64,000 nt of DNA, from the NCBI GenBank assembly GCA_041661685.1, contig JBAZTY010000001.1, forward strand, positions 128,691 to 192,690. Direction: 5' to 3'. The translations under genes and the position numbers were made by a program. The stretch comes from Patescibacteria group bacterium (lineage in GTDB: Bacteria > Patescibacteriota > Patescibacteriia > Patescibacteriales > UBA12465). The notes under the pieces were generated by a model that was not told where the DNA came from, made no database searches, and worked only from the letters and a program-made list of their open reading frames with translations. Below, one piece after another: positions 3,228 through 44,091 of this stretch (the stretch's first letter is position 1; every line of letters begins with the position of its first letter).

Positions 3228-4145
3228 ATGTGGCGTCGCGCGCTGACAATCTTTAGTCTAGCTTTATTCTTAGCGGCCGGTTTTTCGGCCCGGGCTTATT
3301 ATAACCCGGGCAAGCCGGTCTCTTTTGTTAATGATTACGCCGGCGTTTTAAAAACCGAAGAGGTTACGGCCTTGAATAATAAGTTGAGCCAGTTCAATGC
3401 CACGACTTCTAATGAGATCGCGGTCGTCGTCATCAAGAGCTTACAAGGAGACACGATTGAAAATTTTGCCGTTAAGCTATTTGCGGACTGGGGAATAGGG
3501 AAGGAGAAGAAAGACAATGGCGTCTTGTTGCTCATCGCGATCGATGACCGGCAGATGCGCATCGAGACTGGGTATGGCTTAGAGGGCGCTTTGCCGGATG
3601 CGACTACTTTCCAGATTATTAGTAAGACCTTAAAGCCGGCTTTCCAAAATAATGATTATTATGGCGGAATAGATCAGGCCGCTGATGATATCATAGCGGC
3701 GACCAAAGGGGAATATAGCGCCGCTGCGGCCGCTCCTAGTTCCATCCCTGGATTCGCAAAGAATCTGAGCTTTGACACAATTTTCTTTATCATCATTGCC
3801 ATCTTTTATCTGCTTTCGGCTTTATGGCGTTTCTTGGCTAAGAGCAAGAGCTGGTGGCAGGGAGGAGCGCTCGGCGGGGCGATCGGACTGATTATCGCCT
3901 TGATTTTTTTCAGAACTTTATTAGTCTTGATCATATTGCCGGCCGTTATCGGCGTCTTCGGCTTATTATTTGATTTTCTCGTTTCTCGCGTCTTGCCCCA
4001 GCCGAGTCCGATTAAGCAAGGCCGGAATAATCTCTGGTTCTTCGGTGGCGGAGGCGGTAATGGCTTCGGCGGATCGTCTGGCGGAGGTTTCGGCGGTTTC
4101 GGCGGCGGCATGTCGGGCGGCGGCGGATCGTCCGGGAGTTGGTAA
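3228..4145 (+). CDS. TPM-domain (YgcG-like) membrane protein with a Gly-rich C-terminal tail
   Basis: Signal/TM segment, TPM motifs (VNDYAGVL, NEIAVVVIKSL, VLLLIAIDDRQMRIETGYGLEG), TM helices, then GGGGGNGFGGSSGGGFGGFGGG. Confidence 0.8.
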   Translation: MWRRALTIFSLALFLAAGFSARAYYNPGKPVSFVNDYAGVLKTEEVTALNNKLSQFNATTSNEIAVVVIKSLQGDTIENFAVKLFADWGIGKEKKDNGVLLLIAIDDRQMRIETGYGLEGALPDATTFQIISKTLKPAFQNNDYYGGIDQAADDIIAATKGEYSAAAAAPSSIPGFAKNLSFDTIFFIIIAIFYLLSALWRFLAKSKSWWQGGALGGAIGLIIALIFFRTLLVLIILPAVIGVFGLLFDFLVSRVLPQPSPIKQGRNNLWFFGGGGGNGFGGSSGGGFGGFGGGMSGGGGSSGSW

Positions 4146-25399: not shown

Positions 25400-28300
25400 A
25401 TGAAATTTATAAAATTTTTGTTTAGTCTAGTTTTAATGATTTGTTTATTTTCTATTCCCGGATTATGTTGGGCGATGCCGCCGGGGACCTTACTGTATCG
25501 AACTTCCGGCGACGGCAAGATGTTCGGCTATAGCCAAGACCCCCTGATCTATTCGGAAAAGGGAATAATCAAAAATATCTATTCCGGCCATGCCGCTATT
25601 TATATCGGTAAAGAGAACGGGCAGGATTATATTGTCGAAGCGATGGCCGGAGGCATAGTCAAGAATCCGGCGAAATATTTTGTTAATCGAGCTGACGGCG
25701 AAACTTTCTTGGGCGCCCGTATGCCGAAATCAGTCAGCGCTTTACAACAAGCGCGCGTCGTCGCCCTGGCTAAGAGTTTAGTGGGGAAGAAGTTGAACTA
25801 CGATTTTGATTTTCACAAACAGAAAGGTCCTGGAGATAAAGAGTGGACTTGCGTCGGCTTGACTGAGAAACTATATGAAAGTGCCAATATTTTTAACCCG
25901 AATAATCTCGGAGCCTTAGAATATGATCCGGCTTACTATGCTGTTGATATTACGCCAGATGGCTTTGATAATGAGAGTATAGCTAATTCTTCCGGCGATT
26001 GTTTTTCTAAGGATAAGGAGTTCTCTAAGATTGCGCGGCGAACCGATATAGTGATACCGGCGCCGGAACTAATCGGCTATGACGTCGGACTTGAGCATGA
26101 AGGCGACCGTTATATTTTTTTGCCTTATACGCAATTTCTCCAGTCTAGCCTGGAGACTGTCGCTGCGGACATAGAAATTTCTTCATCCTTTTCGCGCGAG
26201 GAGATTAATGGGCCATTAAACGTCTATTCTCTGGCAGCCCGCTGGAGCCTGATTAACAATCCCGTCTCTTCTTTGAAGATTGTCGGGAAGGCAATAAAAG
26301 AAACGGTCGTCAAAGCGGCTGCTAAAACTAAAGAGATAGCGCAAAGCTTAGGCGGAAAGATTTTCGGTTCTAGCGCCGGAACATCTATAACTCTAGTTGA
26401 CGATGGTTTGCGGAAGGCGACGGCGACTGTGAGCAAGACTAAAAAAGCCGTAGCGGTAAATAAAAAAACGACGACTACGTCTAAGGCCAAGACGACTACC
26501 AATAAGAGCCTAGGCGTCAATGTTAAAACCAGTCAGACTGCCGCCGTCGAACTCAAAGCCGGAAAATTAGCCAGCGTCAAGGTTAGCACCGGAAAAACTA
26601 CAGAAGTCAAAGTCAGCGCGACTAAAACTAACACGACTAAGATCAGCGCGTCTAAAACTGATAAAGCGAGTACCCTGGCTGTCAGTTCAGGGGAATCTGT
26701 CCAGCAGGCTTATTATAGCCCGGCCGTATCAACAGTGAGTTCGGTGACGATTCACAGCTCGGGTGGTTCCAGCTCTGGTTCTAGTTCTAGCGGCTCCGGT
26801 AGTTCTTCTTCCGGCGGTTCTTCGGCGAATACGACCGCCGTCGATTATCCGAAGTTAGCGAGCATTAATAAGATATATAGTACCGGCGCTAATGATTGGG
26901 TAGAGATAATTAACACGACTGATCATGATTTTGATCTGGCTGCGGCCGGCTATCGCCTGGAAAAAACGAAGACCGCTGAAGACCCAAGCCTATTAATGCG
27001 CATCGGTGATACCGATGATGGCACTTATCCGGGCGGGACGATAATCAAGGCTCATGATACTTACATGATTGTAAATAGCGGCGCTAATGATTATTATAAG
27101 CAGAAAGCTGATGCCTTGGTCTATCGAGAGGGATTTAGTTGGCCTGGTCCCGGCTATACTATCTATTTGGGCACGGGAGCAATCAGCTCCAGCACTGATC
27201 CGGATATCGTGGACGCCATCGGTTTTGGAGAAGACGCGACCTATTTCCTCGGTAGCGGCCCGGCGCCGGAAATCAAAGATAATTATATCTTAAAGCGCGC
27301 CAGCTCATCGGATGATAACGCGATAGATTTTGGTTTGGTCCTAAGCGATGACCCGTCTATTGTCTTTAATCCTGAGAATGATGATAATCAGGCGGCGACT
27401 TCGACAACCGCCACTTCGACAACCGCCACTTCGACAACCGCCACTTCGACTATAGCCACGTCGACCGCGGTAGTGTCGACTTCGACGCCAGCTGTTGATT
27501 TGAGCCGATTGCTGCTGATAAGAAAAATATATAGCACCGGCGATAATGACTGGATAGAATTATTCAATCCGACTGATACTGATATTAATCTAGCATCGAC
27601 CGGCTATCGTTTAGAAAAAGCCGCGACTACTCAAGATCCGAGCCTATTGATGCGCATCGGCGATGAAGGCGACGGTCTTTATCCCGGAGGAACGACAATA
27701 AAAGCGCACGACAGTTATCTGATAGTGCGCGATGACGCTAATAGTTATTATCTGAATCAGGCCGATGCGATTGCGACGCGAACCGAATTTAGCTGGGGAG
27801 GGAATGGCTATAGTCTCTATATGGGAATGGATGCTATCAGTTCCAGTACTGATCCGGACATCGCCGACTTAGTCGGTTTTGGTTCGGGCGCTTCTTATTA
27901 CGATGGCATCGCGCCGGCGCCCGAGATTATCGATGCTTATATCTTAAATCGAATCGCTAACACTCATCATAATTCGACGGATTTTAATCTGATTGCTTCC
28001 GATGATCCCGATGCCGCCAGCCCTGATTCGGAAATGGATGATGGCTTATTCGTGCCGCCAGTTCCGACTGTTTCCGGTGGGCTGACTGATATCTGGCATT
28101 TTAACGAATGTTATGGACCGGGAGATTGGGCAGTCGGAAAATGGGACTGCGCGCGCCAGCTCGGCTATTATCACGGACCGTTGAATATTGCCCTTAATCC
28201 AGCGGTAAATATGAATAATGGATTCTCGTTGAGCTTTTATTATAAAAAGTCACAGGATACGCCGAGTATCGAGACAGTGCTTTCAAATTCTTCCGGAGAA

Positions 28301-29269
28301 AGATTCTCTATTAGGACAGATGCCGGCATGTTAGAGATAGAAGGTCTGCCAAATTCTGAATTCCGATATTATCAAGGCATCCCCGGCGATTATGAATGGC
28401 ATAAATTAACTTTAGTGATAAATCGCGAGGAGGATTATTGGGAAATCTATATCGATGGCAATAGGGTCATACAGGAATCTTTCTTCCTGACTTTGCCGAT
28501 AATGACTAATTTAGATATCAAGAGTGAAAGCGTCTCGGTTTTATTTGATGAATTGGCCTTATGGCATCGGCCGCTCGCGGCTTCAGAAATAAAAGCCGAT
28601 TATGAAGCCAATGCGCCCTATAGTCCGATGCCGGAACGCGAAGCGCAAACGGCTCCCGAATTGCTTAATTTCTGGAGTTTCGGAGAAGGCACCGGCCAAA
28701 CGTCTTTGGATAGTATCGGCGGAGTTACTCTTAATCTAACTGCTGATGCCTGGGTCGGACGAAGCCATAATAATTATGCCATTAAGGTCGATCCCGGACG
28801 CCTACATTCTGCAACCTTAACTGATTTTCCAGCCACAAAAGATTTATCCATGGCTTTCTGGTGGCGGGATGCGCCTGATGATCATAACGGTGAAACCGGC
28901 CTATATCTTACCGGCGGCGTGAATAATGATAAGAAATTATTGGCGATCTTGCCTGATAATTTTCGGCTTGATTATTGGTTTAATAACAATTACGGAATTT
29001 TAGCCGAAGGATTGAACACGGCGATACCGGGCGGGAGCGATTGGCATTATCTGACCTATGTCTATGACTCTTATCGTTATAAATTAAGCTTCTATGTCGA
29101 TGGGATCGAGAAAGCCAGTTCTTCCTTAATCTGGATACATGAAAGCGACAAAATCAAGGGAATTGAGATAACGACTAGCGGGGCAGAAACGGAAATCGAT
29201 GATCTAAGCCTCTGGCGGGGCGCTTTGAGCCCAAGTCAAGTAAAAGAAATTTATACTAATAATAAATAA
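25400..29269 (+). CDS. Giant secreted multidomain protein: permuted papain-like (YiiX/C92-like) amidase domain, S/T/K-rich linkers, 2 lamin-tail-like (LTD) domains and 2 LamG/concanavalin-like domains
   Basis: Signal peptide. GHAAIYIGKENG...EAMAGGI...EWTCVGLTEKLYE (Cys/His amidase-like). Duplicated KIYSTG.NDW(V/I)E..N.TD...L...GYRLEK blocks (LTD-like). FDELALWHRPLAASEI and IDDLSLWRGALSPSQV (LamG-like ends). Confidence 0.6.
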   Translation: MKFIKFLFSLVLMICLFSIPGLCWAMPPGTLLYRTSGDGKMFGYSQDPLIYSEKGIIKNIYSGHAAIYIGKENGQDYIVEAMAGGIVKNPAKYFVNRADGETFLGARMPKSVSALQQARVVALAKSLVGKKLNYDFDFHKQKGPGDKEWTCVGLTEKLYESANIFNPNNLGALEYDPAYYAVDITPDGFDNESIANSSGDCFSKDKEFSKIARRTDIVIPAPELIGYDVGLEHEGDRYIFLPYTQFLQSSLETVAADIEISSSFSREEINGPLNVYSLAARWSLINNPVSSLKIVGKAIKETVVKAAAKTKEIAQSLGGKIFGSSAGTSITLVDDGLRKATATVSKTKKAVAVNKKTTTTSKAKTTTNKSLGVNVKTSQTAAVELKAGKLASVKVSTGKTTEVKVSATKTNTTKISASKTDKASTLAVSSGESVQQAYYSPAVSTVSSVTIHSSGGSSSGSSSSGSGSSSSGGSSANTTAVDYPKLASINKIYSTGANDWVEIINTTDHDFDLAAAGYRLEKTKTAEDPSLLMRIGDTDDGTYPGGTIIKAHDTYMIVNSGANDYYKQKADALVYREGFSWPGPGYTIYLGTGAISSSTDPDIVDAIGFGEDATYFLGSGPAPEIKDNYILKRASSSDDNAIDFGLVLSDDPSIVFNPENDDNQAATSTTATSTTATSTTATSTIATSTAVVSTSTPAVDLSRLLLIRKIYSTGDNDWIELFNPTDTDINLASTGYRLEKAATTQDPSLLMRIGDEGDGLYPGGTTIKAHDSYLIVRDDANSYYLNQADAIATRTEFSWGGNGYSLYMGMDAISSSTDPDIADLVGFGSGASYYDGIAPAPEIIDAYILNRIANTHHNSTDFNLIASDDPDAASPDSEMDDGLFVPPVPTVSGGLTDIWHFNECYGPGDWAVGKWDCARQLGYYHGPLNIALNPAVNMNNGFSLSFYYKKSQDTPSIETVLSNSSGERFSIRTDAGMLEIEGLPNSEFRYYQGIPGDYEWHKLTLVINREEDYWEIYIDGNRVIQESFFLTLPIMTNLDIKSESVSVLFDELALWHRPLAASEIKADYEANAPYSPMPEREAQTAPELLNFWSFGEGTGQTSLDSIGGVTLNLTADAWVGRSHNNYAIKVDPGRLHSATLTDFPATKDLSMAFWWRDAPDDHNGETGLYLTGGVNNDKKLLAILPDNFRLDYWFNNNYGILAEGLNTAIPGGSDWHYLTYVYDSYRYKLSFYVDGIEKASSSLIWIHESDKIKGIEITTSGAETEIDDLSLWRGALSPSQVKEIYTNNK
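27398..27457 (+). repeat. In-frame 15-bp tandem repeat (acttcgacaaccgcc: 3 perfect copies then degenerate ones) encoding an (ATSTT)n linker
   Basis: Perfect units at 27398-27412, 27413-27427 and 27428-27442, followed by diverged copies. Confidence 0.9.
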
Positions 29270-29300
29270 AAAAGGCCACCTTAGGGTGGCCTTTCTCTTG
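29270..29300 (+). terminator. Intrinsic terminator after the 1289-aa gene
   Basis: aaaaaggccacc-ttag-ggtggccttt followed by a T-rich tract. Confidence 0.8.
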
Positions 29301-29338
29301 CTTTTTTTCGGCTTTTCTTGTATTATGAAAACGTTATT

Positions 29339-29710
29339 AGAGTAAGCGGGCGATTGCTCTATTTTTAATAGAGAGGAAAGTCCGGACTTCGCAATTTGTT
29401 TATTCATAAGCAAATATGATAGTGGGTAACGCCCACCGGTCCGCCGTCAGGCGGATTAGGGAAAGTGCCACAGAGACTATACTAATTCTGGAATTTATTT
29501 GACAGAATCAAAGGTGAAAAGAGGCTGGATGTCCTTCGGGGCTACCGGTTTCGGCCTCCGGCGACGGAGATGCCGTGGTAAACCCTATCAGAAGCAAGAG
29601 CAAACTAGCCCGTTCGCGGGTTAGAAAAAGTAGCTCGCTTGAGCTCGCCAGCAATGGCGAGCCTAGATAAATGATCGCTAGAACAGAATCCGGCTTACGG
29701 CTGCTCTAAT
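29339..29710 (+). ncRNA. rnpB: RNase P RNA, bacterial type A
   Basis: Universal blocks GAGGAAAGTCCGGAC, GGGTAACGCCCACC, AGTGCCACAGAGA, GGTAAACCC, CTTGAGC...GCCTAGATAAATGATCGC and ACAGAATCCGGCTTAC. 5' agag pairs with 3' ctct (P1). Ends are good to about +/-5 nt. Confidence 0.9.
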
Positions 29711-29736
29711 AACCTTAGTCAACAAAAACTTCACAT

Positions 29737-31152
29737 ATGAAAAAAATCGAGTCATTCTTTTCCGTCCTCTTTATTCCGGTGGATTTTGTCATGGTTTTGC
29801 TCGCCGGCGTTTCCGCCTATTTTTTGAGATTTTCCGATTGGTCGTCTAGCATTCGGCCGGCTATCTTTAGTTTGCCTTTTCCGCAATATTTTCGTTCGGT
29901 CGCGCTTATTGCGGTCTTATGGACTATTATTTTCGTTATCGCCGGTCTATATCAGATTAGAGGCGCTCGCCAATTAGCTCAAGAGCTGCGGAAGATATTC
30001 TTCGCCTGTTCGACCGGCTTGGCGCTTATCGCCGTCATGATCTTTTTCCAGCGCGAATTATTCGATTCGCGTTTTATCGTTTTAGCCGGCTGGCTTTTTG
30101 CTGTTATTTATATCAGCTTGGCTCACATTATTATCCGTTTTATCCAGCGCCGTCTATATATTATCGGTGTCGGCGTCCACAAGATTATTCTCGTCGGCAA
30201 TTCTAAGACGACTGATAATCTTATGGCGGAATTTTCCAGCAATAAGAAAGCTGGCTTCGAAGTCGTTAAGCGCGTCCGGGATTTTTCTCTAGAGACTGTT
30301 CAGGAATTAGCTGAATTCGTTAAAGATAGGGAAGTCGATGAGATTATCCAGAGCGATCCGAATCTGAGCAAGGTAGAGACTTTGCGCCTTTATGATTTCG
30401 CTAATGACAATCATCTGACTTTTAAATATGTCGCAGATTTATTGGAGGTGAAGGTCCTTAGGACCGAAGTCGCGGAAATAATCGGTATTCCGGTCGTCGA
30501 AGTGAAGCGCACGACTTTAGAAGGCTGGGGCCGCATCCTAAAACGCGGTTTCGATATCGTCGTTTCTGCTATATTGATAATTATTCTATCTCCGATAATT
30601 CTGATTACCATGCTAGCGATCAAGCTTGATTCTCGCGGGCCGATTTTCTTTTCGCGCCGCGATGACGGCCAGCCCGTGACTCGCGTCGGCGAAGGCGGCG
30701 CGCCGTTCAAGTATTTCAAATTCCGTTCCATGATCCCTAATTCCGACAGCATGCGCTATAACGAATTGGCCGATAGGAATATCCGCACCGACGGTCCGAT
30801 GGTCAAGATTAAGGATGATCCGCGCATCACCCGCGTCGGAAAAATCATCCGCCGCTGGTCCATAGACGAGCTGCCGGAATTATTTTTGGTTTTTGCCGGC
30901 CGTATGAGCCTCGTCGGTCCCCGCCCGCACCTGCCGGAAGAAGTCGCTAAATATGAGAACTATCATCGCAAGACTTTAACCATCAAGCCGGGCATTACCG
31001 GCTTAGCGCAAGTATCCGGTCGCAGCGATTTATTGTTCGAAGAAGAAGCAAAGCTCGATATCTATTATATCGAGAATTGGACTATGCTTCTGGATATTTC
31101 TATTCTATTAAAGACCCCTTTCGCCGTGCTCAAGCACCGTGAAGCGGAATAA
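29737..31152 (+). CDS. Polyprenyl-phosphate sugar phosphotransferase (WbaP/WcaJ/EpsB-type initiating transferase)
   Basis: N-terminal TM helices plus the C-terminal bacterial sugar transferase domain (KRGFDIVVSAILIIILSPI, FKFRSM, DELPELFLVFAGRMSLVGPRP, PGITGLAQVSGR). Confidence 0.85.
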   Translation: MKKIESFFSVLFIPVDFVMVLLAGVSAYFLRFSDWSSSIRPAIFSLPFPQYFRSVALIAVLWTIIFVIAGLYQIRGARQLAQELRKIFFACSTGLALIAVMIFFQRELFDSRFIVLAGWLFAVIYISLAHIIIRFIQRRLYIIGVGVHKIILVGNSKTTDNLMAEFSSNKKAGFEVVKRVRDFSLETVQELAEFVKDREVDEIIQSDPNLSKVETLRLYDFANDNHLTFKYVADLLEVKVLRTEVAEIIGIPVVEVKRTTLEGWGRILKRGFDIVVSAILIIILSPIILITMLAIKLDSRGPIFFSRRDDGQPVTRVGEGGAPFKYFKFRSMIPNSDSMRYNELADRNIRTDGPMVKIKDDPRITRVGKIIRRWSIDELPELFLVFAGRMSLVGPRPHLPEEVAKYENYHRKTLTIKPGITGLAQVSGRSDLLFEEEAKLDIYYIENWTMLLDISILLKTPFAVLKHREAE

Positions 31153-31156
31153 ACCC

Positions 31157-32275
31157 ATGAAAACCGCTTTAATCCATGATCATCTCGCCCAGGACGGCGG
31201 CGCCGAAAAAGTCTTGCAAGTTTTAGCCGATATGTTCCAGGACGCGCCGATATATACGCTTCTCTATGAAAAGAAGAATATCGACCGCTATGCCGGCCGC
31301 AAGGTTGCGGCCTCCATCATCCAGAAACTGCCCGGCGGCGTCAAGCATTATCAATGGTATCTGACCTTCATGCCGATTGCCGTGGAGTTTTTTGATTTAG
31401 GGGAATACGACTTGGTTATTTCCGATACCAGCTCTTTTGCTAAAGGCGTCATCACTAAGCCGGATTGCCTGCATATCTGCTACTGCCATACTCCGACCCG
31501 CTATCTCTGGAGCGATACTCATGAATATCTGAATGAGCTCAAATATAATAAATGGTTCAAGAAGATCATTTCTCTCGTTATCAGCCGCATCCGCCTCTGG
31601 GATCGCGCCGCCGCCGATCGGGTTGATTTTTTCATCGCTAATTCCGTTACTGTCCAAAAGCGCATCAGGAAATATTATCGCCGCGAATCCGTCGTTATTT
31701 ATCCGCCGGTAGAAACGGAGATATTTTCGATTATTAATCCGGTTGAATATGCGCAGAGCGAAAAATATTTCTTAGCCGGTTGCCGCTTGGCGCCATATAA
31801 GCGCATCGATATCGTTATCGAGGCTTTTAAGCTTTTAGGCGGAGATTATAAGTTGAAAATCTTCGGCGATGGCGTGGATATGAAGCGCTTGAAGAATATC
31901 GCTGGAGATAATCATAATATCGAATTTTTGGGCCGAGTGACCGAAGAAGAGAAGGCTCGCCTTTATCAAGGCGCTGAGGCTTTCATTAATCCGCAAGAAG
32001 AAGATTTTGGCATCACAGCCGTTGAATCGATGGCGAGCGGCCGGCCGGTAATCGCTTATCGCAAAGGCGGCGCGACCGAAACGATCATTGCAGGGAAGAC
32101 CGGTACATTTTTTGATATCCAGACTGCGGAAGAGCTAGAAAAGGTAATTAGGAATTTTAAATCAGGAACTTACGATTCAAAAGAGATACGCGCTCATGCT
32201 GAACAATTTTCTGTGGATAATTTTAAGCGCCAGATGAACGAGTTCATCGCGGCTCGTAAAAATGGAAAGCAATAG
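31157..32275 (+). CDS. Glycosyltransferase family 4
   Basis: MKTALIHDHLAQDGGAEKV start, and the E-x7-E region EEDFGITAVESMASGRPVIA. The ATG at 31157 is preferred over the GTG at 31139. Confidence 0.8.
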   Translation: MKTALIHDHLAQDGGAEKVLQVLADMFQDAPIYTLLYEKKNIDRYAGRKVAASIIQKLPGGVKHYQWYLTFMPIAVEFFDLGEYDLVISDTSSFAKGVITKPDCLHICYCHTPTRYLWSDTHEYLNELKYNKWFKKIISLVISRIRLWDRAAADRVDFFIANSVTVQKRIRKYYRRESVVIYPPVETEIFSIINPVEYAQSEKYFLAGCRLAPYKRIDIVIEAFKLLGGDYKLKIFGDGVDMKRLKNIAGDNHNIEFLGRVTEEEKARLYQGAEAFINPQEEDFGITAVESMASGRPVIAYRKGGATETIIAGKTGTFFDIQTAEELEKVIRNFKSGTYDSKEIRAHAEQFSVDNFKRQMNEFIAARKNGKQ

Positions 32276-32308
32276 GAAGATTTTTAATATAAAAAAAGTT
32301 TTTTGTAT

Positions 32309-32343
32309 AAAAAAAGGGGATAAGTTTCTCAATACTTATCCCC
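32309..32343 (-). terminator. Strong minus-strand-only intrinsic terminator with no minus-strand CDS to serve
   Basis: The minus strand reads GGGGATAAGT-attgagaa-ACTTATCCCC followed by TTTTTTT. On the plus strand the U-run is absent. Confidence 0.8.
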
Positions 32344-32654
32344 GACATGACGAAGGTTACGACACTGAAATCAGAATGATTTATCTCTAATTCTATGAGC
32401 TTTGGGCAATCGCATTGAGCTGCAGTATGTTTACCTTGCGTGCGACCGGCGGGCTATAAAATGATAGAGAATTAAGTTTTTATTACCAATGTCAGACCGC
32501 GTACCATGCCGAGACTAATTGATTAATGATTGTGCACCCGGGTGCAGAAATAATAAATTTTTCGCTAGTTATTACCCGAACAGAGGTTTCCTCTTATTGG
32601 TAGCTAACTCGAAATCATGGTTTGGTTTTGATGCCAAGCAGTTCAATCAGTCTT
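32344..32654 (-). ncRNA. Candidate unclassified non-coding transcript, bounded by a minus-strand promoter and terminator (about 345 nt including the terminator at 32309-32343)
   Basis: No ORF above about 12 codons on the minus strand. Internal hairpins include the tgcacccgggtgca palindrome and agagg-aaa-cctct. I recognised no family. Confidence 0.35.
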
Positions 32655-32660
32655 AACGAC

Positions 32661-32689
32661 ATCCTAGTCCTTGCCTTAATCATTGTCAA
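32661..32689 (-). promoter_or_regulatory. Minus-strand sigma-70-type promoter TTGACA-17 nt-TAGGAT
   Basis: The reverse complement of 32684-32689 is TTGACA and that of 32661-32666 is TAGGAT. The spacer is exactly 17 nt. Confidence 0.5.
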
Positions 32690-32724
32690 GAGTCTCAAAA
32701 AGTCTAAAATATCAGTAAAGTCTT

Positions 32725-33891
32725 ATGAAAATCGGGATAGATATCAGAGTTTTAATGGATAAGCATTATAGCGGCATATCAGAATATACCGCTAATTTAT
32801 TATCGGCTATATTGGCGCAGGATCAGACCAATGAATATAAGTTTTTTTATAATTCTTATCATGATTTAAACGGTCGCCTGGATAAATGGAATAACCATAA
32901 TTCTCAGGTCATCGGCCTCCACTATCCGAACAAGATTTTTAATTATTGCCTGCAGAAAATTTTCGGTTATCCGCGATTGGATAAGATTTTAGGCGGCGTC
33001 GATGTCTTCTGGTTGCCGCATTTTAATTTTACAAGTTTGAGCAGTTCGGAATCAGGACTAAAGAAAGTAATTACGGTCCACGATCTATCCTTCCTGCGCT
33101 ATCCGCAATTCTTCAGCGGCCGCAAGAATTTTTGGCATAAAGCTCTCGGCGTTAAGAAAATACTGAAGGAAGCGGATATGGTCATCGCGGTTTCGGAAAA
33201 TACGAAGAATGATATTATCGAGCTGGCGGGCATTGATGCTGCGAAAATCAGAGTGATTTATTCCGGCAACAACGTTATTAAGAAAGCCTGGCCGGAAGAT
33301 AAGATAAAAACTTGCCTAGATAAGCTAGACATCAGCGGCCCGTTCATCCTTTACGTCGGCAATATCGAACCGCGTAAGAATATCAGCGGCCTGATTAAGG
33401 CATATGATAAGCTACGGAATGAATTACGAAACAAAAGCGAGAATGTTGATCTAGTCTTAGCCGGTGCTCCGGGCTGGAAAGATTCTCAGATTCATAAAGA
33501 CTGGCAAGCCTCTACTTATAAGAACCAGATCAAGTTCCTCGGCTATATAAGCCAAGAAGAAAAAGAAATATTATATTCTCGAGCCGCTGTTTTTGTTTAT
33601 CCATCCTTCTATGAAGGTTTCGGCTTTCCGCCTTTAGAAGCGATGACTTATGGCGCGCCCGTCGTCTGTTCGAATGTTTCTAGTCTGTCGGAAATAGTCG
33701 CTGACGCGGCCATAATGATTAATCCAGAAAAACCTGAAGAGATAGCGAAAGCTATGAAGCTAATTTTGACCGACAAAGAGTTGCGCGCGCATTTAGTATC
33801 CTTAGGTTATGAACGCGCAAAAATATTTTCTTGGGATAAAGCCGCTAAAGAATATTTAGAATTATTTAAAGAATTGCATGAAAATAGATAA
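32725..33891 (+). CDS. Glycosyltransferase family 4
   Basis: YVGNIEPRKN, FVYPSFYEGFGFPPLEAMTYGAPVVCSN. Confidence 0.85.
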   Translation: MKIGIDIRVLMDKHYSGISEYTANLLSAILAQDQTNEYKFFYNSYHDLNGRLDKWNNHNSQVIGLHYPNKIFNYCLQKIFGYPRLDKILGGVDVFWLPHFNFTSLSSSESGLKKVITVHDLSFLRYPQFFSGRKNFWHKALGVKKILKEADMVIAVSENTKNDIIELAGIDAAKIRVIYSGNNVIKKAWPEDKIKTCLDKLDISGPFILYVGNIEPRKNISGLIKAYDKLRNELRNKSENVDLVLAGAPGWKDSQIHKDWQASTYKNQIKFLGYISQEEKEILYSRAAVFVYPSFYEGFGFPPLEAMTYGAPVVCSNVSSLSEIVADAAIMINPEKPEEIAKAMKLILTDKELRAHLVSLGYERAKIFSWDKAAKEYLELFKELHENR

Positions 33892-34966
33892 GAAAAAAAA
33901 GATATTAGTCGCTATGTCCGGCGGAGTTGATTCTAGTGTGGCGGCTCAGCTTCTGAAGAACCAGGGATATGAGGTCGCTGGCGTCTTTTTGCATTTTTGG
34001 AAAGATGAGACGATGGGGCCGGGAGCCGAGAACCGCTGCTGCTCATTAGAATCCCTTTTAGACGCTAAGGCGGTCGCGAATAAAATCGGTATTCCGCTGT
34101 ATACTTTTAATTTTTCCGAGCCTTTTAAAAAGGCGGTTGTGGATAATTTTTTAAGCGAATATAATGCCGGCCGGACGCCGAATCCTTGCGTCGTCTGCAA
34201 TAAGCGAATCAAACTCGGTTTATTATTGAAGCACGCTCGGGCCCTCGGCTTCGATTATGTCGCCTCGGGACATTATTTGAATATCAAGAAAGTCGGTCGC
34301 GCATATCAGCTTTTCAAGGCCAAAGATAAAAACAAGGATCAATCTTATTTCTTATATACGTTCACGCCCGACGAACTGGCGCATCTAATGTTTCCGCTAG
34401 GAAATTATACTAAGCCGCAAGTCCGGAAATTAGCGGCTAAATTCAAGCTGGCCGTCGCGGCTAAGCCGGAAAGCCAAGATATCTGCTTCTTGTCAGGCAG
34501 CCATAATAATTTTTTGAAGAAATATCTGAAGTTAATTCCGGGAGATATCAGGATATTGGGCACGAATGAGAAAATCGGCGAGCATCAGGGTTTGCCGCTA
34601 TATACTATTGGTCAGCGCCGCGGACTTGTTGGCGGCACTGGGCCATATTACGCGGCTAAATTTGATTATAAGAAGAATATTCTTTATGTTGTAAAAAACT
34701 GGAATGAGAATATTTTATATGAGAAGGGATTGATAGCTAAGAAAGTCAATTGGCTTTCCGGCCGCACGCCGAAGAGAGCTTTCAAAGGCAGCGCGGTTAT
34801 CCGTTACGGTCATCCGGCCGTGCCTTGTATGGTCTCGCCTAAGAATAAGACAGATTATTTGGTGACTTTCGTTAAGCCGCAGCGCGCCGTGACCCCGGGA
34901 CAGAGCGTGGTTTTTTATGATAAGAGGCGCGTTTTAGGCGGGGGAATCATCTCTGCTTTGAAGTAA
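33878..34966 (+). CDS. mnmA: tRNA 2-thiouridine(34) synthase MnmA
   Basis: ILVAMSGGVDSSVAA PP-loop, NPCVVCNKRIK, DQSYFLY, PESQDICF. Confidence 0.9.
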   Translation: MKIDKKKKILVAMSGGVDSSVAAQLLKNQGYEVAGVFLHFWKDETMGPGAENRCCSLESLLDAKAVANKIGIPLYTFNFSEPFKKAVVDNFLSEYNAGRTPNPCVVCNKRIKLGLLLKHARALGFDYVASGHYLNIKKVGRAYQLFKAKDKNKDQSYFLYTFTPDELAHLMFPLGNYTKPQVRKLAAKFKLAVAAKPESQDICFLSGSHNNFLKKYLKLIPGDIRILGTNEKIGEHQGLPLYTIGQRRGLVGGTGPYYAAKFDYKKNILYVVKNWNENILYEKGLIAKKVNWLSGRTPKRAFKGSAVIRYGHPAVPCMVSPKNKTDYLVTFVKPQRAVTPGQSVVFYDKRRVLGGGIISALK

Positions 34967-35446: not shown

Positions 35447-35523
35447 GTTACGAAAAAATATTCGCTCTCAAATAGGTTATTTTTCTACAAAAAAGACGCC
35501 ATTAAGACATCTTTTTGTAAATG

Positions 35524-35607
35524 TGCCCAGGGCGGGAATCGAACCCGCATGGCCTCACGGCCGCACGATTTTGAGTCGTGTTCGTCTACCAGTTCCGACA
35601 CCTGGGC
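35524..35607 (-). tRNA. tRNA-Leu (anticodon CAA), long variable arm
   Basis: The minus strand reads GCCCAGGTGTCGGAACTGGTAGACGAACACGACTCAAAATCGTGCGGCCGTGAGGCCATGCGGGTTCGATTCCCGCCCTGGGCA. It folds as a cloverleaf with anticodon loop CT-CAA-AA. Confidence 0.9.
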
Positions 35608-35693
35608 TAAATTAACTGGCTTATTACGATTTTCAGTATAATAAATAAAATATTAATTGTCAAAAGAGATTCTTTATTATATAATACCCTCAT

Positions 35694-36458
<765 letters not shown>

Positions 36459-43140: not shown

Positions 43141-44091
43141 TTAAAATAATCCCAGTAATCGTGATGAATGTTTTATTCTTAGATTGAGTTTAGTATTATA
43201 AATAGCCAGAGCTTCTTTAGCATTTTTACCATGGAAAATAATCGCGCCGAGAGCGGCATTAAGTCTAGTCGCTTCTTCTAACGGTCGCTGGTGCAGATTG
43301 CGGCCGATGGCCATGCCGGCCGCCTTAGAAATATTAATCTGCCCTTCTAGATGCTCCAAAATCTCTTTGACCGGGCGTTTATCACCGCCGACGCAGATGA
43401 CTTTAGTCCGTCCGGCCGCTTCCACAGCTTCCTGAAATTTGAGAGCTGTCGCCTTCTTATCTTTTAGATTATAAGGATATTTTATTTTCACGAAATCGGC
43501 ATCAAGTGCGGCCGCGACTCCGGCGCCGCCGGCGATAATATGGATATCTTCTTCCTTAATATCTTGGCCGCGCGGATAAACCCAGAGCACAGCTAATAAG
43601 CCGGCTTGGTGCGCTTCAAAGATCGCTTTGGCAGCAGCTCTGAGCATCTTGGCTTCGTAAATGCCGCCGAGATAAAGGGTATAGCCGATAGCGACGATAT
43701 TTAGGTCGCTTTGTTTTTTGAACTTAACAACATCTTCGACCTTCCACCAGACTTTGCTAGAATTCTTTTCACCTTCACCTATGTTCGTCTTGCCGTTAAG
43801 TTTGATGATATAGGGCAGGGAGCGATAGTCTTGGCCGTACCGGGAAATTAGGCCGGGATGAGCCGCTAGAACTCCGCCCTGAGAAGCAGCCGCTATTCTA
43901 AAGAGATGCTCCGGATTCTTATCTTCCGGAGATATGCCCGGGCCGTAGAAATCGTTATTCAGGTGTTCAACTTTCTGGTCGCCGGCAATAAGTAAGAGAT
44001 TGCCGCTGCCATTTGTCAGGCGGCGGAAATTTTTCAAATATGCGCTTTTTTTGCCGCCGGGAACGCTTAAAGGTATCTTGATAGATTTCAT
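43141..44091 (-). CDS. Class I fructose-bisphosphate aldolase, DhnA/FbaB (archaeal-type) family
   Basis: IAGDQKVEH, YIIKLNGKTN, LLAVLWVYPRG, DADFVKIKYP (Schiff-base Lys region) and GMAIGRNLHQRP parallel E. coli FbaB blocks. Confidence 0.7.
   Translation of the reverse strand: MKSIKIPLSVPGGKKSAYLKNFRRLTNGSGNLLLIAGDQKVEHLNNDFYGPGISPEDKNPEHLFRIAAASQGGVLAAHPGLISRYGQDYRSLPYIIKLNGKTNIGEGEKNSSKVWWKVEDVVKFKKQSDLNIVAIGYTLYLGGIYEAKMLRAAAKAIFEAHQAGLLAVLWVYPRGQDIKEEDIHIIAGGAGVAAALDADFVKIKYPYNLKDKKATALKFQEAVEAAGRTKVICVGGDKRPVKEILEHLEGQINISKAAGMAIGRNLHQRPLEEATRLNAALGAIIFHGKNAKEALAIYNTKLNLRIKHSSRLLGLF

Follow-up and report, generated by a model that had tools for sequence, protein, structure and literature searches.

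A predicted minus-strand non-coding RNA gene with a covarying rod-and-bubble fold at a glycosyltransferase junction in Patescibacteria

Introduction

What occupies the gap between two plus-strand GT4 glycosyltransferase genes in a glycan locus of a patescibacterium? In the window, i.e. the whole 64,000-nucleotide stretch of DNA analysed here, this gap extends from the stop codon of the upstream GT4 gene at 32275 to the ATG of the downstream GT4 gene at 32725. A first-pass annotation, made from the sequence alone, had proposed that the gap holds an unannotated, independently transcribed minus-strand non-coding RNA (ncRNA) belonging to no known class, and that this gene would also insulate the two halves of the glycan locus from each other. 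Apart from the universal ones, few regulatory RNAs are known to us from Patescibacteria (candidate phyla radiation), and a literature search for 6S or non-coding RNA in this group returned nothing relevant. Here, we ask whether the gap encodes an RNA, from which strand, with which structure, and how such an RNA might act.

Results

The gap carries minus-strand transcription signals

The following features delimit the unit.

32684 to 32689, minus strand: −35 hexamer TTGACA, invariant in 11/11 orthologous units
32661 to 32666, minus strand: −10 hexamer TAGGAT, 17 nt from the −35 hexamer
32309 to 32654, minus strand: predicted transcript of about 346 nt, from an AAGAC start to the terminator U-tract (start motif, folds and terminator)
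32309 to 32343, minus strand: intrinsic terminator from a terminator scan, a 10-bp hairpin (32316-32343) followed by U7 (32309-32315)
32683 to 32710, plus strand: promoter-like TTGTCA-16-TAAAAT before the downstream GT4 gene, back to back with the RNA promoter (context only)

On re-reading the sequence, we recovered the minus-strand promoter that had been reported at 32689-32661: the reverse complement of 32661-32689 is TTGACA-ATGATTAAGGCAAGGAC-TAGGAT, which matches the consensus at 10/12 positions with a 17-nt spacer. In a 15-kb scan, 40 matches this good were found versus 26.5 expected, and the exact form TTGACA-N17-TANNAT occurred once in 64 kb versus 0.10 expected, with at least one occurrence in 10% of shuffles. 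Thus, the window's promoter match taken alone is marginal, and its weight rests on conservation in relatives. TTGACA-17 nt-TAnnAT is present in 11/11 orthologous units, with the −10 variants TAATAT, TAACAT, TAAGAT and TAGAAT and a 17-nt spacer throughout. Moreover, a CYAAGRC start motif lies 6-7 nt past the −10 hexamer in 7/11 units, and in the unit folds examined the first helix begins with its 5' AAGRC. The tRNA-Leu gene in the window, a known stable-RNA gene, has the same promoter layout (TTGACAAT-17-TATACT). The promoter-like site on the plus strand is kept in L059 and is absent from L003, L004, L063, L064 and L065.

On the minus strand, the terminator reads GGGGATAAGT-loop of 8-ACTTATCCCC-TTTTTTT and ranked third in the 15-kb scan. 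Read on the plus strand, the hairpin has A7 before it and GACATG after it, which makes the terminator one-directional; this agrees with the earlier description of a terminator at 32343-32309 that works on the minus strand only (10 pairs and U7, no plus-strand U-tract). No plus-strand terminator was predicted in the gap in the same 15-kb scan. Every orthologous unit is closed by a hairpin and a U-tract of at least six U, which in L060 reads U4-C-U6, and the stem sequence has been replaced in L060, L068, L071 and L072, the hairpins of L060, L068 and L072 being entirely different in sequence.

The first-pass annotation had argued from the distance to the nearest minus-strand coding sequence on the right, about 10 kb, that the terminator cannot belong to a protein gene. 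That distance (to 43141-44091) and the conclusion both stand; what has to be corrected is that a minus-strand tRNA-Leu gene lies at 35523-35607, only 2.9 kb to the right of the gap. We considered and rejected the terminator as that of tRNA-Leu because the tRNA gene has its own terminators, as it has its own promoter. The GC content is 0.39-0.42 in the gap interior versus 0.32-0.36 at the gap edges, as expected from the GC-richer interior described before. The predicted transcript stays clear of both flanking coding sequences and of any ribosome-binding site. From these signals, we infer that the minus-strand unit is transcribed.

The transcript lacks a conserved reading frame and matches no known RNA family

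The longest ATG-started minus-strand open reading frame (ORF) in the unit has 11 codons (MVRGLTLVIKT). The earlier figure of about 11 codons is therefore true for ATG starts; a TTG-started minus-strand ORF of 24 codons (32572-32646) is also present and is not conserved. The first-pass annotation had named a conserved small protein on either strand as evidence that would speak against its proposal. Across the units, no conserved ORF was found inside the transcript on either strand, and every frame is broken. In the gap of L063, the gene caller had placed a spurious plus-strand ORF of 63 aa.

The Rfam scan that the first-pass annotation had called for gave no match in the gap with Rfam 15, whether at the gathering threshold or with the cut-off relaxed to E≤10, the latter search covering the gaps of the window, L059, L063, L064, L065 and L072. 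The models for 6S RNA, SRP RNA and RNase P RNA gave no match in the gap, and the RNase P RNA of this genome was found by Rfam at 29337-29713. The tmRNA-like length had been remarked on before without a tmRNA assignment; in line with this, ARAGORN found no tmRNA in the window, Rfam gave no tmRNA match, and there is no tRNA in the gap. As for riboswitches, there is no Rfam aptamer, no minus-strand gene downstream and no conserved antiterminator among the units read; one possible antiterminator pairing of 8 bp was rejected, being found in L059 only and not conserved. Finally, the transcript (32654-32309) lies wholly between the stop codon at 32275 and the ATG at 32725, which does not fit a cis-antisense RNA. 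The ncRNA family is new.

The unit is retained at one locus and changes in modules

Conservation in relatives, the absence of which the first-pass annotation would have held against its proposal, was found: 11 distinct relatives from a Falkowbacteria-like clade of Patescibacteria have a minus-strand unit at this GT4-GT4 junction. The locus of the window also occurs, in identical form, in the sequencing runs SRR18595301 and SRR6484324. At this locus in L005, L006, L007, L070 and the P0008 contig, the GT4 genes abut or are ≤17 nt apart, and the unit is absent. It is also missing here in more distant relatives and in at least two lineages inside the clade, and the GT4 tree indicates at least two complete losses from this junction within the clade. 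The assemblies VFKX01 and GCA_964449035 belong to relatives that lack it here.

Among relatives, unit length ranges from 173 to 458 nt, the minimal units being those of L064 and L065 (173 and 179 nt). Units contain one to three rod modules in tandem: L072 has three, several units have two, L064 and L065 have one, and the P0008 contig has none. Module A, described below, is absent from L004, L060, L068 and L071, and no module is universal. With models R1 and R2, no second copy was found in the 64-kb window and about 290 kb of related loci.

We also considered where the unit might have come from. The corresponding gap of L014 contains a minus-strand gene that encodes a two-helix membrane protein of 71 aa and has its own promoter and terminator. 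A pseudogene of this protein was rejected as the source because tblastn shows no residual similarity. A 117-aa ORF between the GT4 genes of L010 has no relation to the 117-aa ORF of the window. A phage or mobile origin was rejected because motif scans of viral contigs gave weak chance matches: model matches reached ≤20.5 bits with a GC content of 0.5-0.7 versus about 0.4-0.5 in real copies, and the two module-B pattern matches that were read, L090 and L091, did not resemble the element.

The RNA is predicted to fold into a rod with an open bubble

The predicted transcript is divided as follows.

32512 to 32654, minus strand: accessory 5' domain, variable and module B-like, with AGACUGAUUGA / UCAAUUAGUCU as its closing strands in the MFE fold
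32533 to 32546, minus strand: GCACCCGGGUGC hairpin, which is the 14-nt palindrome tgcacccgggtgca, exact in L059 and L060
32345 to 32510, minus strand: module A, a rod of about 166 nt (model R2 match, covariation)
32471 to 32485, minus strand: A-rich 5' strand of the central bubble (GUAAUAAAAACUUAA), unpaired in the MFE fold
32370 to 32384, minus strand: 3' strand of the central bubble, containing CAUUCU (consensus CRUNMU..AG), unpaired in the MFE fold
32383 to 32473, minus strand: most conserved core, the apical stem around AGCCCGCC-(GGUC hairpin GAUU)-GCCCAAAG (model R1)

The 5' domain is nearly identical in L059, is absent from L064 and L065, and has GGCAUCAAAAC and CCGGGUG..AAUC in common with the module B of L060, L071, L072 and L068. 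Covariation in this domain is weak, with too few informative sequences, and, judged from its sequence, the domain is fast-evolving. The 14-nt palindrome noticed in the first-pass annotation lies here, at 32533-32546; aligned with L071 and L072, it falls on the 3' strand CCGGGUGUC of their module B.

Module A starts with the closing stem GGCAUG/CAUGUC, followed by GGU/ACC with a C versus UA bulge; beyond these lie a stem, the open bubble, an apical stem, a conserved internal loop and a hairpin. Model R2 matches at 32342-32513 (38.3 bits, E 4e-7) and model R1 matches the core (58.6 bits, E 3.5e-15). Among relatives, module A is 144-172 nt long with 13-17 nt per bubble strand, giving a bubble of about 15x15 nt; in L064 and L003, both strands measure exactly 15 nt. 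Alignment A3 has CCCGCC and CC.AAAG as its invariant columns, which correspond to an invariant apical internal loop, CCCGCC / GCCYAAAG. Modelled in this way, the loop looks like a binding pocket.

Independent single-sequence folds of five module A copies gave the same rod, with the stems paired and an unpaired probability of 0.56-0.92 across copies in the bubble. For the 5' bubble strand, the mean unpaired probability is 0.77 in the window and 0.71-0.91 in the other copies; for the 3' bubble strand, it is 0.56 in the window and 0.68-0.92 in the other copies.

Covariation supports this fold. RNAalifold found compensatory changes in 14/20 core pairs. In an alignment of only seven module A copies, which the covariance model itself had fitted to the structure, 83.5% of cells are paired versus about 41% (36-45%) in slid controls, and 29/44 pairs are changed on both sides versus 7-10 in slid controls and a mean of 11.6 in shuffles. 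The observed covariation values were matched in 0/500 shuffles. The homology and covariation check proposed in the first-pass annotation thus yields, from seven copies, a structure that covaries. This covariation shows purifying selection on structure.

Three measures bear on the strand. The folding z-score of the window is -4.29 on the minus versus -3.09 on the plus strand; minus-strand z-scores range from -3.0 to -4.8 and are better than plus-strand scores in 4/5 copies and in the window. The count of G-U versus A-C combinations, 27 versus 20, does not discriminate the strands. Raw folding energy is lower on the plus strand in 8/11 units, a comparison confounded by the G+U-rich plus strand. 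Since the wobble count and raw energy are not decisive, the assignment to the minus strand rests on the promoter, the terminator and the z-scores.

Discussion

In total, a promoter and a terminator in 11/11 units, a covarying structure, the absence of a conserved ORF and the absence of an Rfam match bear out the central claim of the first-pass annotation, i.e. an unannotated, independently transcribed minus-strand ncRNA outside the known classes. We conclude that this is very probably a real structured ncRNA gene. To the joint claim that it is a real ncRNA gene and that its product is a folded, protein-binding RNA that acts in trans, we assign a probability of roughly 0.45.

On this reading, the gene would sit backwards inside a plus-strand glycan-synthesis operon of a Falkowbacteria-like patescibacterium, and a sigma-70-type promoter would drive an RNA that ends at the one-directional intrinsic terminator and folds as rod modules. 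In each rod, two helical arms would flank an open bubble, the apical arm bearing the invariant C-rich loop. The folded RNA particle would bind protein in trans with one binding unit per rod, which would account for the one, two or three rods in relatives. The likeliest partner may be RNA polymerase, with the rod mimicking an open promoter as in 6S RNA, for holoenzyme, or Ms1, for core. As a specific binding partner, however, RNA polymerase is proposed by analogy, and we regard it as a doubtful candidate.

6S RNA binds the housekeeping sigma holoenzyme, which is released by a short product RNA templated on 6S RNA, and Ms1 binds the RNA polymerase core without sigma; we know of no tandem rods in 6S RNA. 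6S RNA is a rod of 160-200 nt with an enlarged internal loop between helical arms, and its gene often forms a monocistronic unit, with a rho-independent terminator and a −10 box (PMC8414754). The fold has a large central bubble between its closing stem and its apical stem-loop (PMC8414754; PMC9130861), and a central bubble with two short arms is reported to suffice for the 6S cycle in vitro (PMC8876501). The element described here resembles 6S RNA (ssrS; RF00013 and related families) in several respects: it is a stand-alone gene with a predicted sigma-70-type promoter and a predicted intrinsic terminator, its paired 5' and 3' ends form a closing stem, module A has the fold of a rod with a large open bubble between two arms, and the sequence is poorly conserved while the structure is kept by compensation. 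Moreover, in some lactic acid bacteria mnmA is found near the 6S gene (PMC8414754), and here it lies 1.2 kb from the unit, which may be coincidence.

By contrast, the whole transcript of the window has 346 nt and is longer than 6S RNA through the extra 5' domain, Rfam 6S models give no match even at E≤10, and conservation is strongest in the apical internal loop and not around the bubble. Module A also has no hairpin on its 3' bubble strand. Its 5' bubble strand is A-rich, so that a product RNA would be U-rich and the hybrid weak. Finally, relatives carry one to three tandem rods, and, in the loci searched, the family is limited to one small clade, has repeatedly been lost and always occupies a single locus. 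For a housekeeping regulator, this loss pattern and the absence of a second copy in the 355 kb of related loci searched are odd.

Ms1, with about 300 nt, contains a bubble and extra hairpins (PMC9130861). The transcript here, with 346 nt, is likewise longer than 6S RNA and combines a bubble-containing rod with extra hairpin domains. However, phylum and synteny differ, and the likeness is one of length and described layout, with no homology seen; in addition, Ms1 has its extra hairpins at either end, whereas the repeated elements of the present RNA are whole rods. Between genera, Ms1 is undetectable by sequence similarity and was found via structure and synteny (PMC9130861). That module A is the Patescibacteria counterpart of 6S RNA and Ms1, i.e. 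an open-promoter mimic that sequesters RNA polymerase, is an analogy that we consider somewhat unlikely to hold; such a counterpart would have evolved independently or diverged past recognition, and would be unusual in having one to three rods per transcript and in being acquired, shortened and lost among close relatives.

Two further systems share single traits with the unit. As in the CsrB/RsmZ sponges, module copy number varies between close relatives, which by analogy suggests one ligand per module; unlike the short GGA hairpins of those sponges, each module here is a rod of about 150 nt that contains internal loops, and there is no CsrA-type motif. As in riboswitch-controlled antisense RNAs, a pocket-like conserved loop lies directly upstream of the terminator, and transcripts reading through it would be antisense to the upstream GT4 gene; unlike in those RNAs, there is neither a conserved antiterminator nor an Rfam aptamer, and the terminators are strong with full U-tracts.

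The best surviving alternative, although an unlikely one, is a trans-acting base-pairing sRNA in which the unpaired C-rich ACCCGCC / GCCYAAAG would serve as seeds for G-rich mRNA sites and the rods as a scaffold. RsaE/RoxS-type sRNAs of Firmicutes use C-rich loops, and the only invariant nucleotides of this family are unpaired (probability 0.6-0.97) and C-rich; also, the gene lies inside a cell-envelope glycan locus, a possible target. However, the complement GGCGGGT occurs 3 times in the window versus 4.0 expected, with 0/3 in the glycan locus, and the C-rich strands face each other across an internal loop, more a structured pocket than a free seed. Moreover, L004, L060, L068 and L071 lack the motifs yet keep the gene, and, to our knowledge, Patescibacteria generally lack Hfq.

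Alternatively, the unit could act in cis, convergent transcription or a sense-antisense duplex cut by RNase III uncoupling the halves of the glycan operon, which is close to the insulator function proposed in the first-pass annotation. Consistent with this, the unit lies backwards between genes that in relatives abut or are ≤17 nt apart, its promoter and terminator are its most constant parts, and sense and antisense transcripts should overlap since no plus-strand terminator is predicted in the gap. But only the spacer made by the gene itself would be complementary, no coding sequence or ribosome-binding site being overlapped, and interference alone would not select 29/44 compensated intramolecular pairs or an invariant loop. 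The insulator itself is unsupported: the U-tract is on the minus strand only, there is no predicted plus-strand terminator, and in L004 the downstream GT4 start codon lies 17 nt past the hexamer shared by the units. This spacing leaves no room for a plus-strand promoter, so that transcription of the downstream GT4 gene in L004 has to come from upstream and pass through the unit. We therefore consider action in cis quite unlikely.

Could the unit be the remnant of a decaying cassette, formerly a small gene or a mobile or phage RNA, that has no present function and loses modules stepwise? Module content does shrink over the GT4 tree from three rods to none, with at least two complete losses, unit length varies from 173 to 458 nt, and the L014 gap holds the 71-aa membrane-protein gene instead. 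Neutral decay, however, would hit promoter and terminator like the interior, and both are intact in 11/11 units; terminators have even been swapped for other hairpins predicted to work. Purifying selection on structure also speaks against a remnant, as do the lack of similarity to the L014 protein, of a substantial viral-contig match and of a second copy in the loci searched. These observations make a remnant decidedly unlikely.

If instead the plus strand were functional, the fold would be an intercistronic processing or stabilising element of the operon mRNA, and the minus-strand signals would be incidental. Watson-Crick covariation is strand-symmetric, and the raw energies and G-U versus A-C count noted above give this reading some room. 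Nevertheless, it is very unlikely: it leaves the conserved minus-strand −35 and −10 hexamers, the fixed 17-nt spacer and the minus-only U-tract unexplained in 11/11 units, the z-scores favour the minus strand, and the unpaired regions, U-rich on the plus strand, show on the minus strand the A-richness typical of structured RNAs. A small protein, for which one could cite the TTG-started minus-strand ORF (24 codons, 32572-32646), plus-strand ORFs of 45-46 codons and the ORF called in L063, is hardly credible, because no ORF keeps its position, length or sequence from one unit to the next, peptide matches between units fall only over promoter DNA or the RNA core and differ in frame and length, and the region of the window's ORFs is wholly missing in L064 and L065.

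A folded RNA that binds protein in trans therefore remains our preferred reading. Whatever its partner, the unit is a well-delimited new RNA family with a promoter, a start, a terminator, a covarying structure and a fast-changing modular build, and it represents a type of gene that annotation pipelines miss. If the module binds something other than RNA polymerase, it would define a new RNA-protein or RNA-ligand system. If the rod and bubble bind RNA polymerase, control of the 6S/Ms1 type would extend to a major uncultured branch of bacteria, and, with 6S/Ms1-like sequestration, these ultra-small bacteria, which depend on hosts, would possess a tunable global brake on transcription.

A minus-strand transcription unit between two GT4 genes

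The two plus-strand GT4 glycosyltransferase genes, which share a gene run with a sugar transferase, MnmA and a 117-aa ORF, are separated by a gap in which the first-pass annotation had described a promoter and a terminator working only on the minus strand. Both signals were read in the gap:

31139-32275, plus strand: upstream GT4 gene
32276-32724: gap of 449 nt
32343-32309, minus strand: terminator, a 10-bp hairpin followed by U7
32689-32661, minus strand: promoter TTGACA-17 nt-TAGGAT, read from the sequence
32725-33891, plus strand: downstream GT4 gene
35523-35607, minus strand: tRNA-Leu(CAA) gene, 2.9 kb right of the unit, with its own promoter and terminators

On the plus strand, the terminator hairpin is preceded by A7 and lacks a following T-run and, therefore, termination is predicted in the minus direction only; a plus-strand terminator was not predicted anywhere in the gap. 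The exact pattern TTGACA-N17-TANNAT occurs once in 64 kb versus 0.10 sites expected; looser promoter-like matches are common and, thus, the promoter and terminator signals are unconvincing by themselves. The predicted RNA (32654-32309) is clear of both CDSs and of the downstream start region. The gap interior, first described as GC-richer than typical spacers, is GC-richer than the gap edges. The longest ATG-started ORF in the unit has 11 codons, as first reported, but a TTG-started ORF of 24 codons is also present. The first-pass annotation, which placed the nearest minus-strand CDS to the right about 10 kb away, had not noted the tRNA-Leu gene; this gene ends in terminators of its own. The tRNA-Leu promoter has the same layout as that of the RNA unit.

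Back-to-back promoters at 35635-35685 drive the tRNA-Leu(CAA) gene and a plus-strand parA-like gene (35694-36458); they share the palindromic hexamer TTGTCAA, and the RNA unit and the GT4 gene downstream are laid out in the same way at 32683-32689. At 29337-29713 on the plus strand, 2.6 kb upstream of the unit, is a gene for a bacterial class A RNase P RNA (182 bits), preceded by a bidirectional terminator (29268-29297) and a possible promoter, TTGCTT-16-TATTAT. The glycan locus is adjoined by a gene (25400-29269, plus strand) for what is probably a large surface protein; its 1289 aa join lamin-tail domains and one concanavalin-like lectin domain to a C92 permuted papain-like amidase domain.

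The unit is conserved in one clade

Judged by the neighbouring proteins, the window belongs to Patescibacteria, with Candidatus Falkowbacteria as the nearest named relatives. Among orthologous GT4-GT4 junctions drawn from species-representative genomes, metagenome contigs and contigs encoding close GT4 homologues, a minus-strand unit was found in 11 distinct versions, i.e. the window (identical in loci L001 and L002), L003, L004, L059, L060 (with L061 and L062), L063, L064, L065, L068 (with L069), L071 and L072; a twelfth (L066/L067) is truncated. TTGACA, exactly 17 nt and TAnnAT are kept in 11/11 units, all of which end in a hairpin and a tract of at least six U (U4-C-U6 in L060). CYAAGRC follows TAnnAT after 6-7 nt in seven of the 11 and, in units with folds examined, the AAGRC with which the transcript is predicted to start forms the 5' strand of the first helix. 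The terminator hairpin is GGGATAAG/CTTATCCC in most units, with compensatory changes at its top, and differs in sequence in L060, L068 and L072. In L004, the GT4 start codon is 17 nt beyond the shared hexamer and, therefore, conservation of the hexamer in that locus cannot be due to a plus-strand promoter.

The GT4 genes are only 2-17 nt apart, without the unit, in three distant loci (L005, L006 and L007; GT4 identity at most 68%) and likewise in two closer relatives, L070 and the P0008 contig. In a neighbour-joining tree of GT4 proteins, all carriers of the unit group in a single clade, L072 branching near the base; the position of the absences, at (L005, L070) and at P0008 as sister of L065, implies ancestral insertion followed by at least two losses. 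Covariance models of the conserved core (R1) and of whole module A (R2) detected no second copy in the window or related loci, and motif scans of viral contigs gave chance matches only. Thus far, the family is confined to one Falkowbacteria-like clade.

The same junction has other occupants. In L014 (Buchananbacteria), the gap (3678-3991) contains a minus-strand gene (3696-3908) with its own TTGACA/TATAAT promoter and terminator; its 71-aa product (MFNWRSKLFGFLAIVGLIGYVV...) is predicted to have two membrane helices, and the gene has no detectable sequence similarity to the window gap. Small backward-facing genes seem to have landed at this junction repeatedly. In L015 (4360-4590), two direct copies of a ~37-nt sequence (TCCCAAATTACTAATTACCGATTACAAATTACC) in the GT4-GT4 gap flank ~150 nt containing G+C-rich hairpins, possibly a miniature mobile element. 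Finally, a public gene call in L063 (2313-2504, plus strand), a 63-aa ORF without a Pfam match on the strand opposite the RNA unit, is probably an annotation artefact of the unrecognised RNA gene.

The RNA is predicted to fold into rods

Units consist of one to three tandem rods and then the terminator. Module A is carried by the window, L003, L059, L063, L064, L065 and L072, and constitutes the entire unit in L064 and L065 (173 and 179 nt). From its base to its tip, it comprises:

closing stem around CAUG: GRCAUGAU / AUCAUGUC, ending directly before the terminator
3-bp helix GGU/ACC: with a small asymmetric loop, C opposite GYA
short stem: G-C-rich
internal loop (bubble): 13-17 nt per strand, 5' strand A-rich, 3' strand with CRUNMU
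apical stem: ~16-18 bp, U-rich versus A-rich
apical internal loop: CCCGCC on one side, CC-Y-AAAG on the other, the family's only invariant nucleotides
tip: short hairpin

Module B (L060, L068, L071 and L072) has a similar rod layout and shares GGUCGGACA-YYAAAAC at the 5' side and GUGUCGUAAY at the 3' side. The 5' domain of the window unit (32512-32654) is a derived module B. The 14-nt palindrome reported earlier is present (32533-32546) and is a local hairpin of this domain, exact in L059 and L060. A module C, AACC(C/G)GG-loop-CCGGAAGAUG-hairpin-CAUAAAUCUUGAUCAGAA, stands just before the terminator in L060, L066, L068 and L072 and is absent from the window.

Single-sequence folds of five module A copies independently gave the same rod (z-scores -3.0 to -4.8; whole window unit, -4.3), and partition functions left both bubble strands unpaired and the stems paired in all seven copies. 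The apical helices were also found by RNAalifold from a plain MAFFT alignment, with 14/20 pairs compensated. A whole-module covariance model built from three copies recovered the other four, scoring the window at 38 bits (E 4e-7) and L072 marginally (17 bits, E 0.025 in 38.5 kb searched). In the seven-copy alignment, which is small and fitted to the model, standard pairs make up 83.5% of cells, and both sides have changed in 29 of 44 pairs; none of 500 shuffles reached the observed covariation values, and with partners slid by 1-3 columns 36-45% of cells were paired and 7-10 pairs were doubly changed.

Possible functions of the RNA

Altogether, the signals and folds compared across relatives show the gap to hold a predicted independent, non-coding promoter-to-terminator unit in which the rod-and-bubble fold is conserved and one internal loop is invariant. 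The RNA would act in trans as a folded, protein-binding molecule with one rod per binding unit, which fits the variable rod number.

In Rfam 15, the gap had no hit at the gathering threshold and five copies had none at E<=10, which excludes recognisable 6S, tmRNA, SRP, RNase P, riboswitch and ribozyme families; nothing was found in the gap by ARAGORN. The closest known architecture is that of 6S RNA, a rod of 160-200 nt in which two helical arms flank an enlarged internal loop; it is frequently monocistronic, with a -10 box and a terminator of its own (PMC8414754). A bubble with two short arms suffices for the 6S cycle in vitro (PMC8876501). Ms1 RNA is longer, with a bubble and extra hairpins, and is missed by sequence searches between genera (PMC9130861). 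Because of this likeness, together with the Ms1 comparison, we rank first an open-promoter mimic that would bind RNA polymerase, at a probability of about 0.25-0.3. However, there is no model match, conservation is strongest in the apical loop, the template strand would be A-rich, rods occur in tandem, a universal module is lacking and the gene was lost repeatedly. The tRNA 2-thiouridylase gene mnmA (33878-34966, plus strand) lies 1.2 kb from the RNA gene. In some lactic acid bacteria, mnmA is also listed among the genes of the 4-kb 6S RNA neighbourhood (PMC8414754, Fig. 2 legend), which may be coincidence.

A base-pairing sRNA with C-rich seeds is a doubtful alternative to the polymerase mimic. 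Somewhat less probable is a cis-acting interference or antisense device, including the transcriptional insulator between the halves of the glycan locus proposed initially; the insulator fails against one-way termination, the lack of a predicted plus-strand terminator and L004, where absence of room for a plus-strand promoter requires read-through. A decaying cassette is unlikely, and a plus-strand intercistronic element distinctly more so: raw folding energies favour the G+U-rich plus strand and the G-U versus A-C count, at 27 versus 20, leaves the strand undecided, but the minus-strand assignment rests on promoter, terminator, z-scores and A-rich loops. An encoded small protein is hardly tenable, all three minus-strand frames being broken in the window, L003 and L004, and an all-versus-all comparison of ORFs of at least 12 codons in the 11 gaps yielding no peptide conserved in frame and length, and matches only over promoter DNA or the RNA core.

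In total, the proposal of an unannotated ncRNA of unknown class is borne out by signals conserved in all 11 units and a covarying fold, and we conclude from these comparisons that the gap holds a real gene for a structured ncRNA whose family is absent from Rfam. The RNA is novel as a family, and it would gain in interest with proof that RNA polymerase, or another defined partner, binds it.
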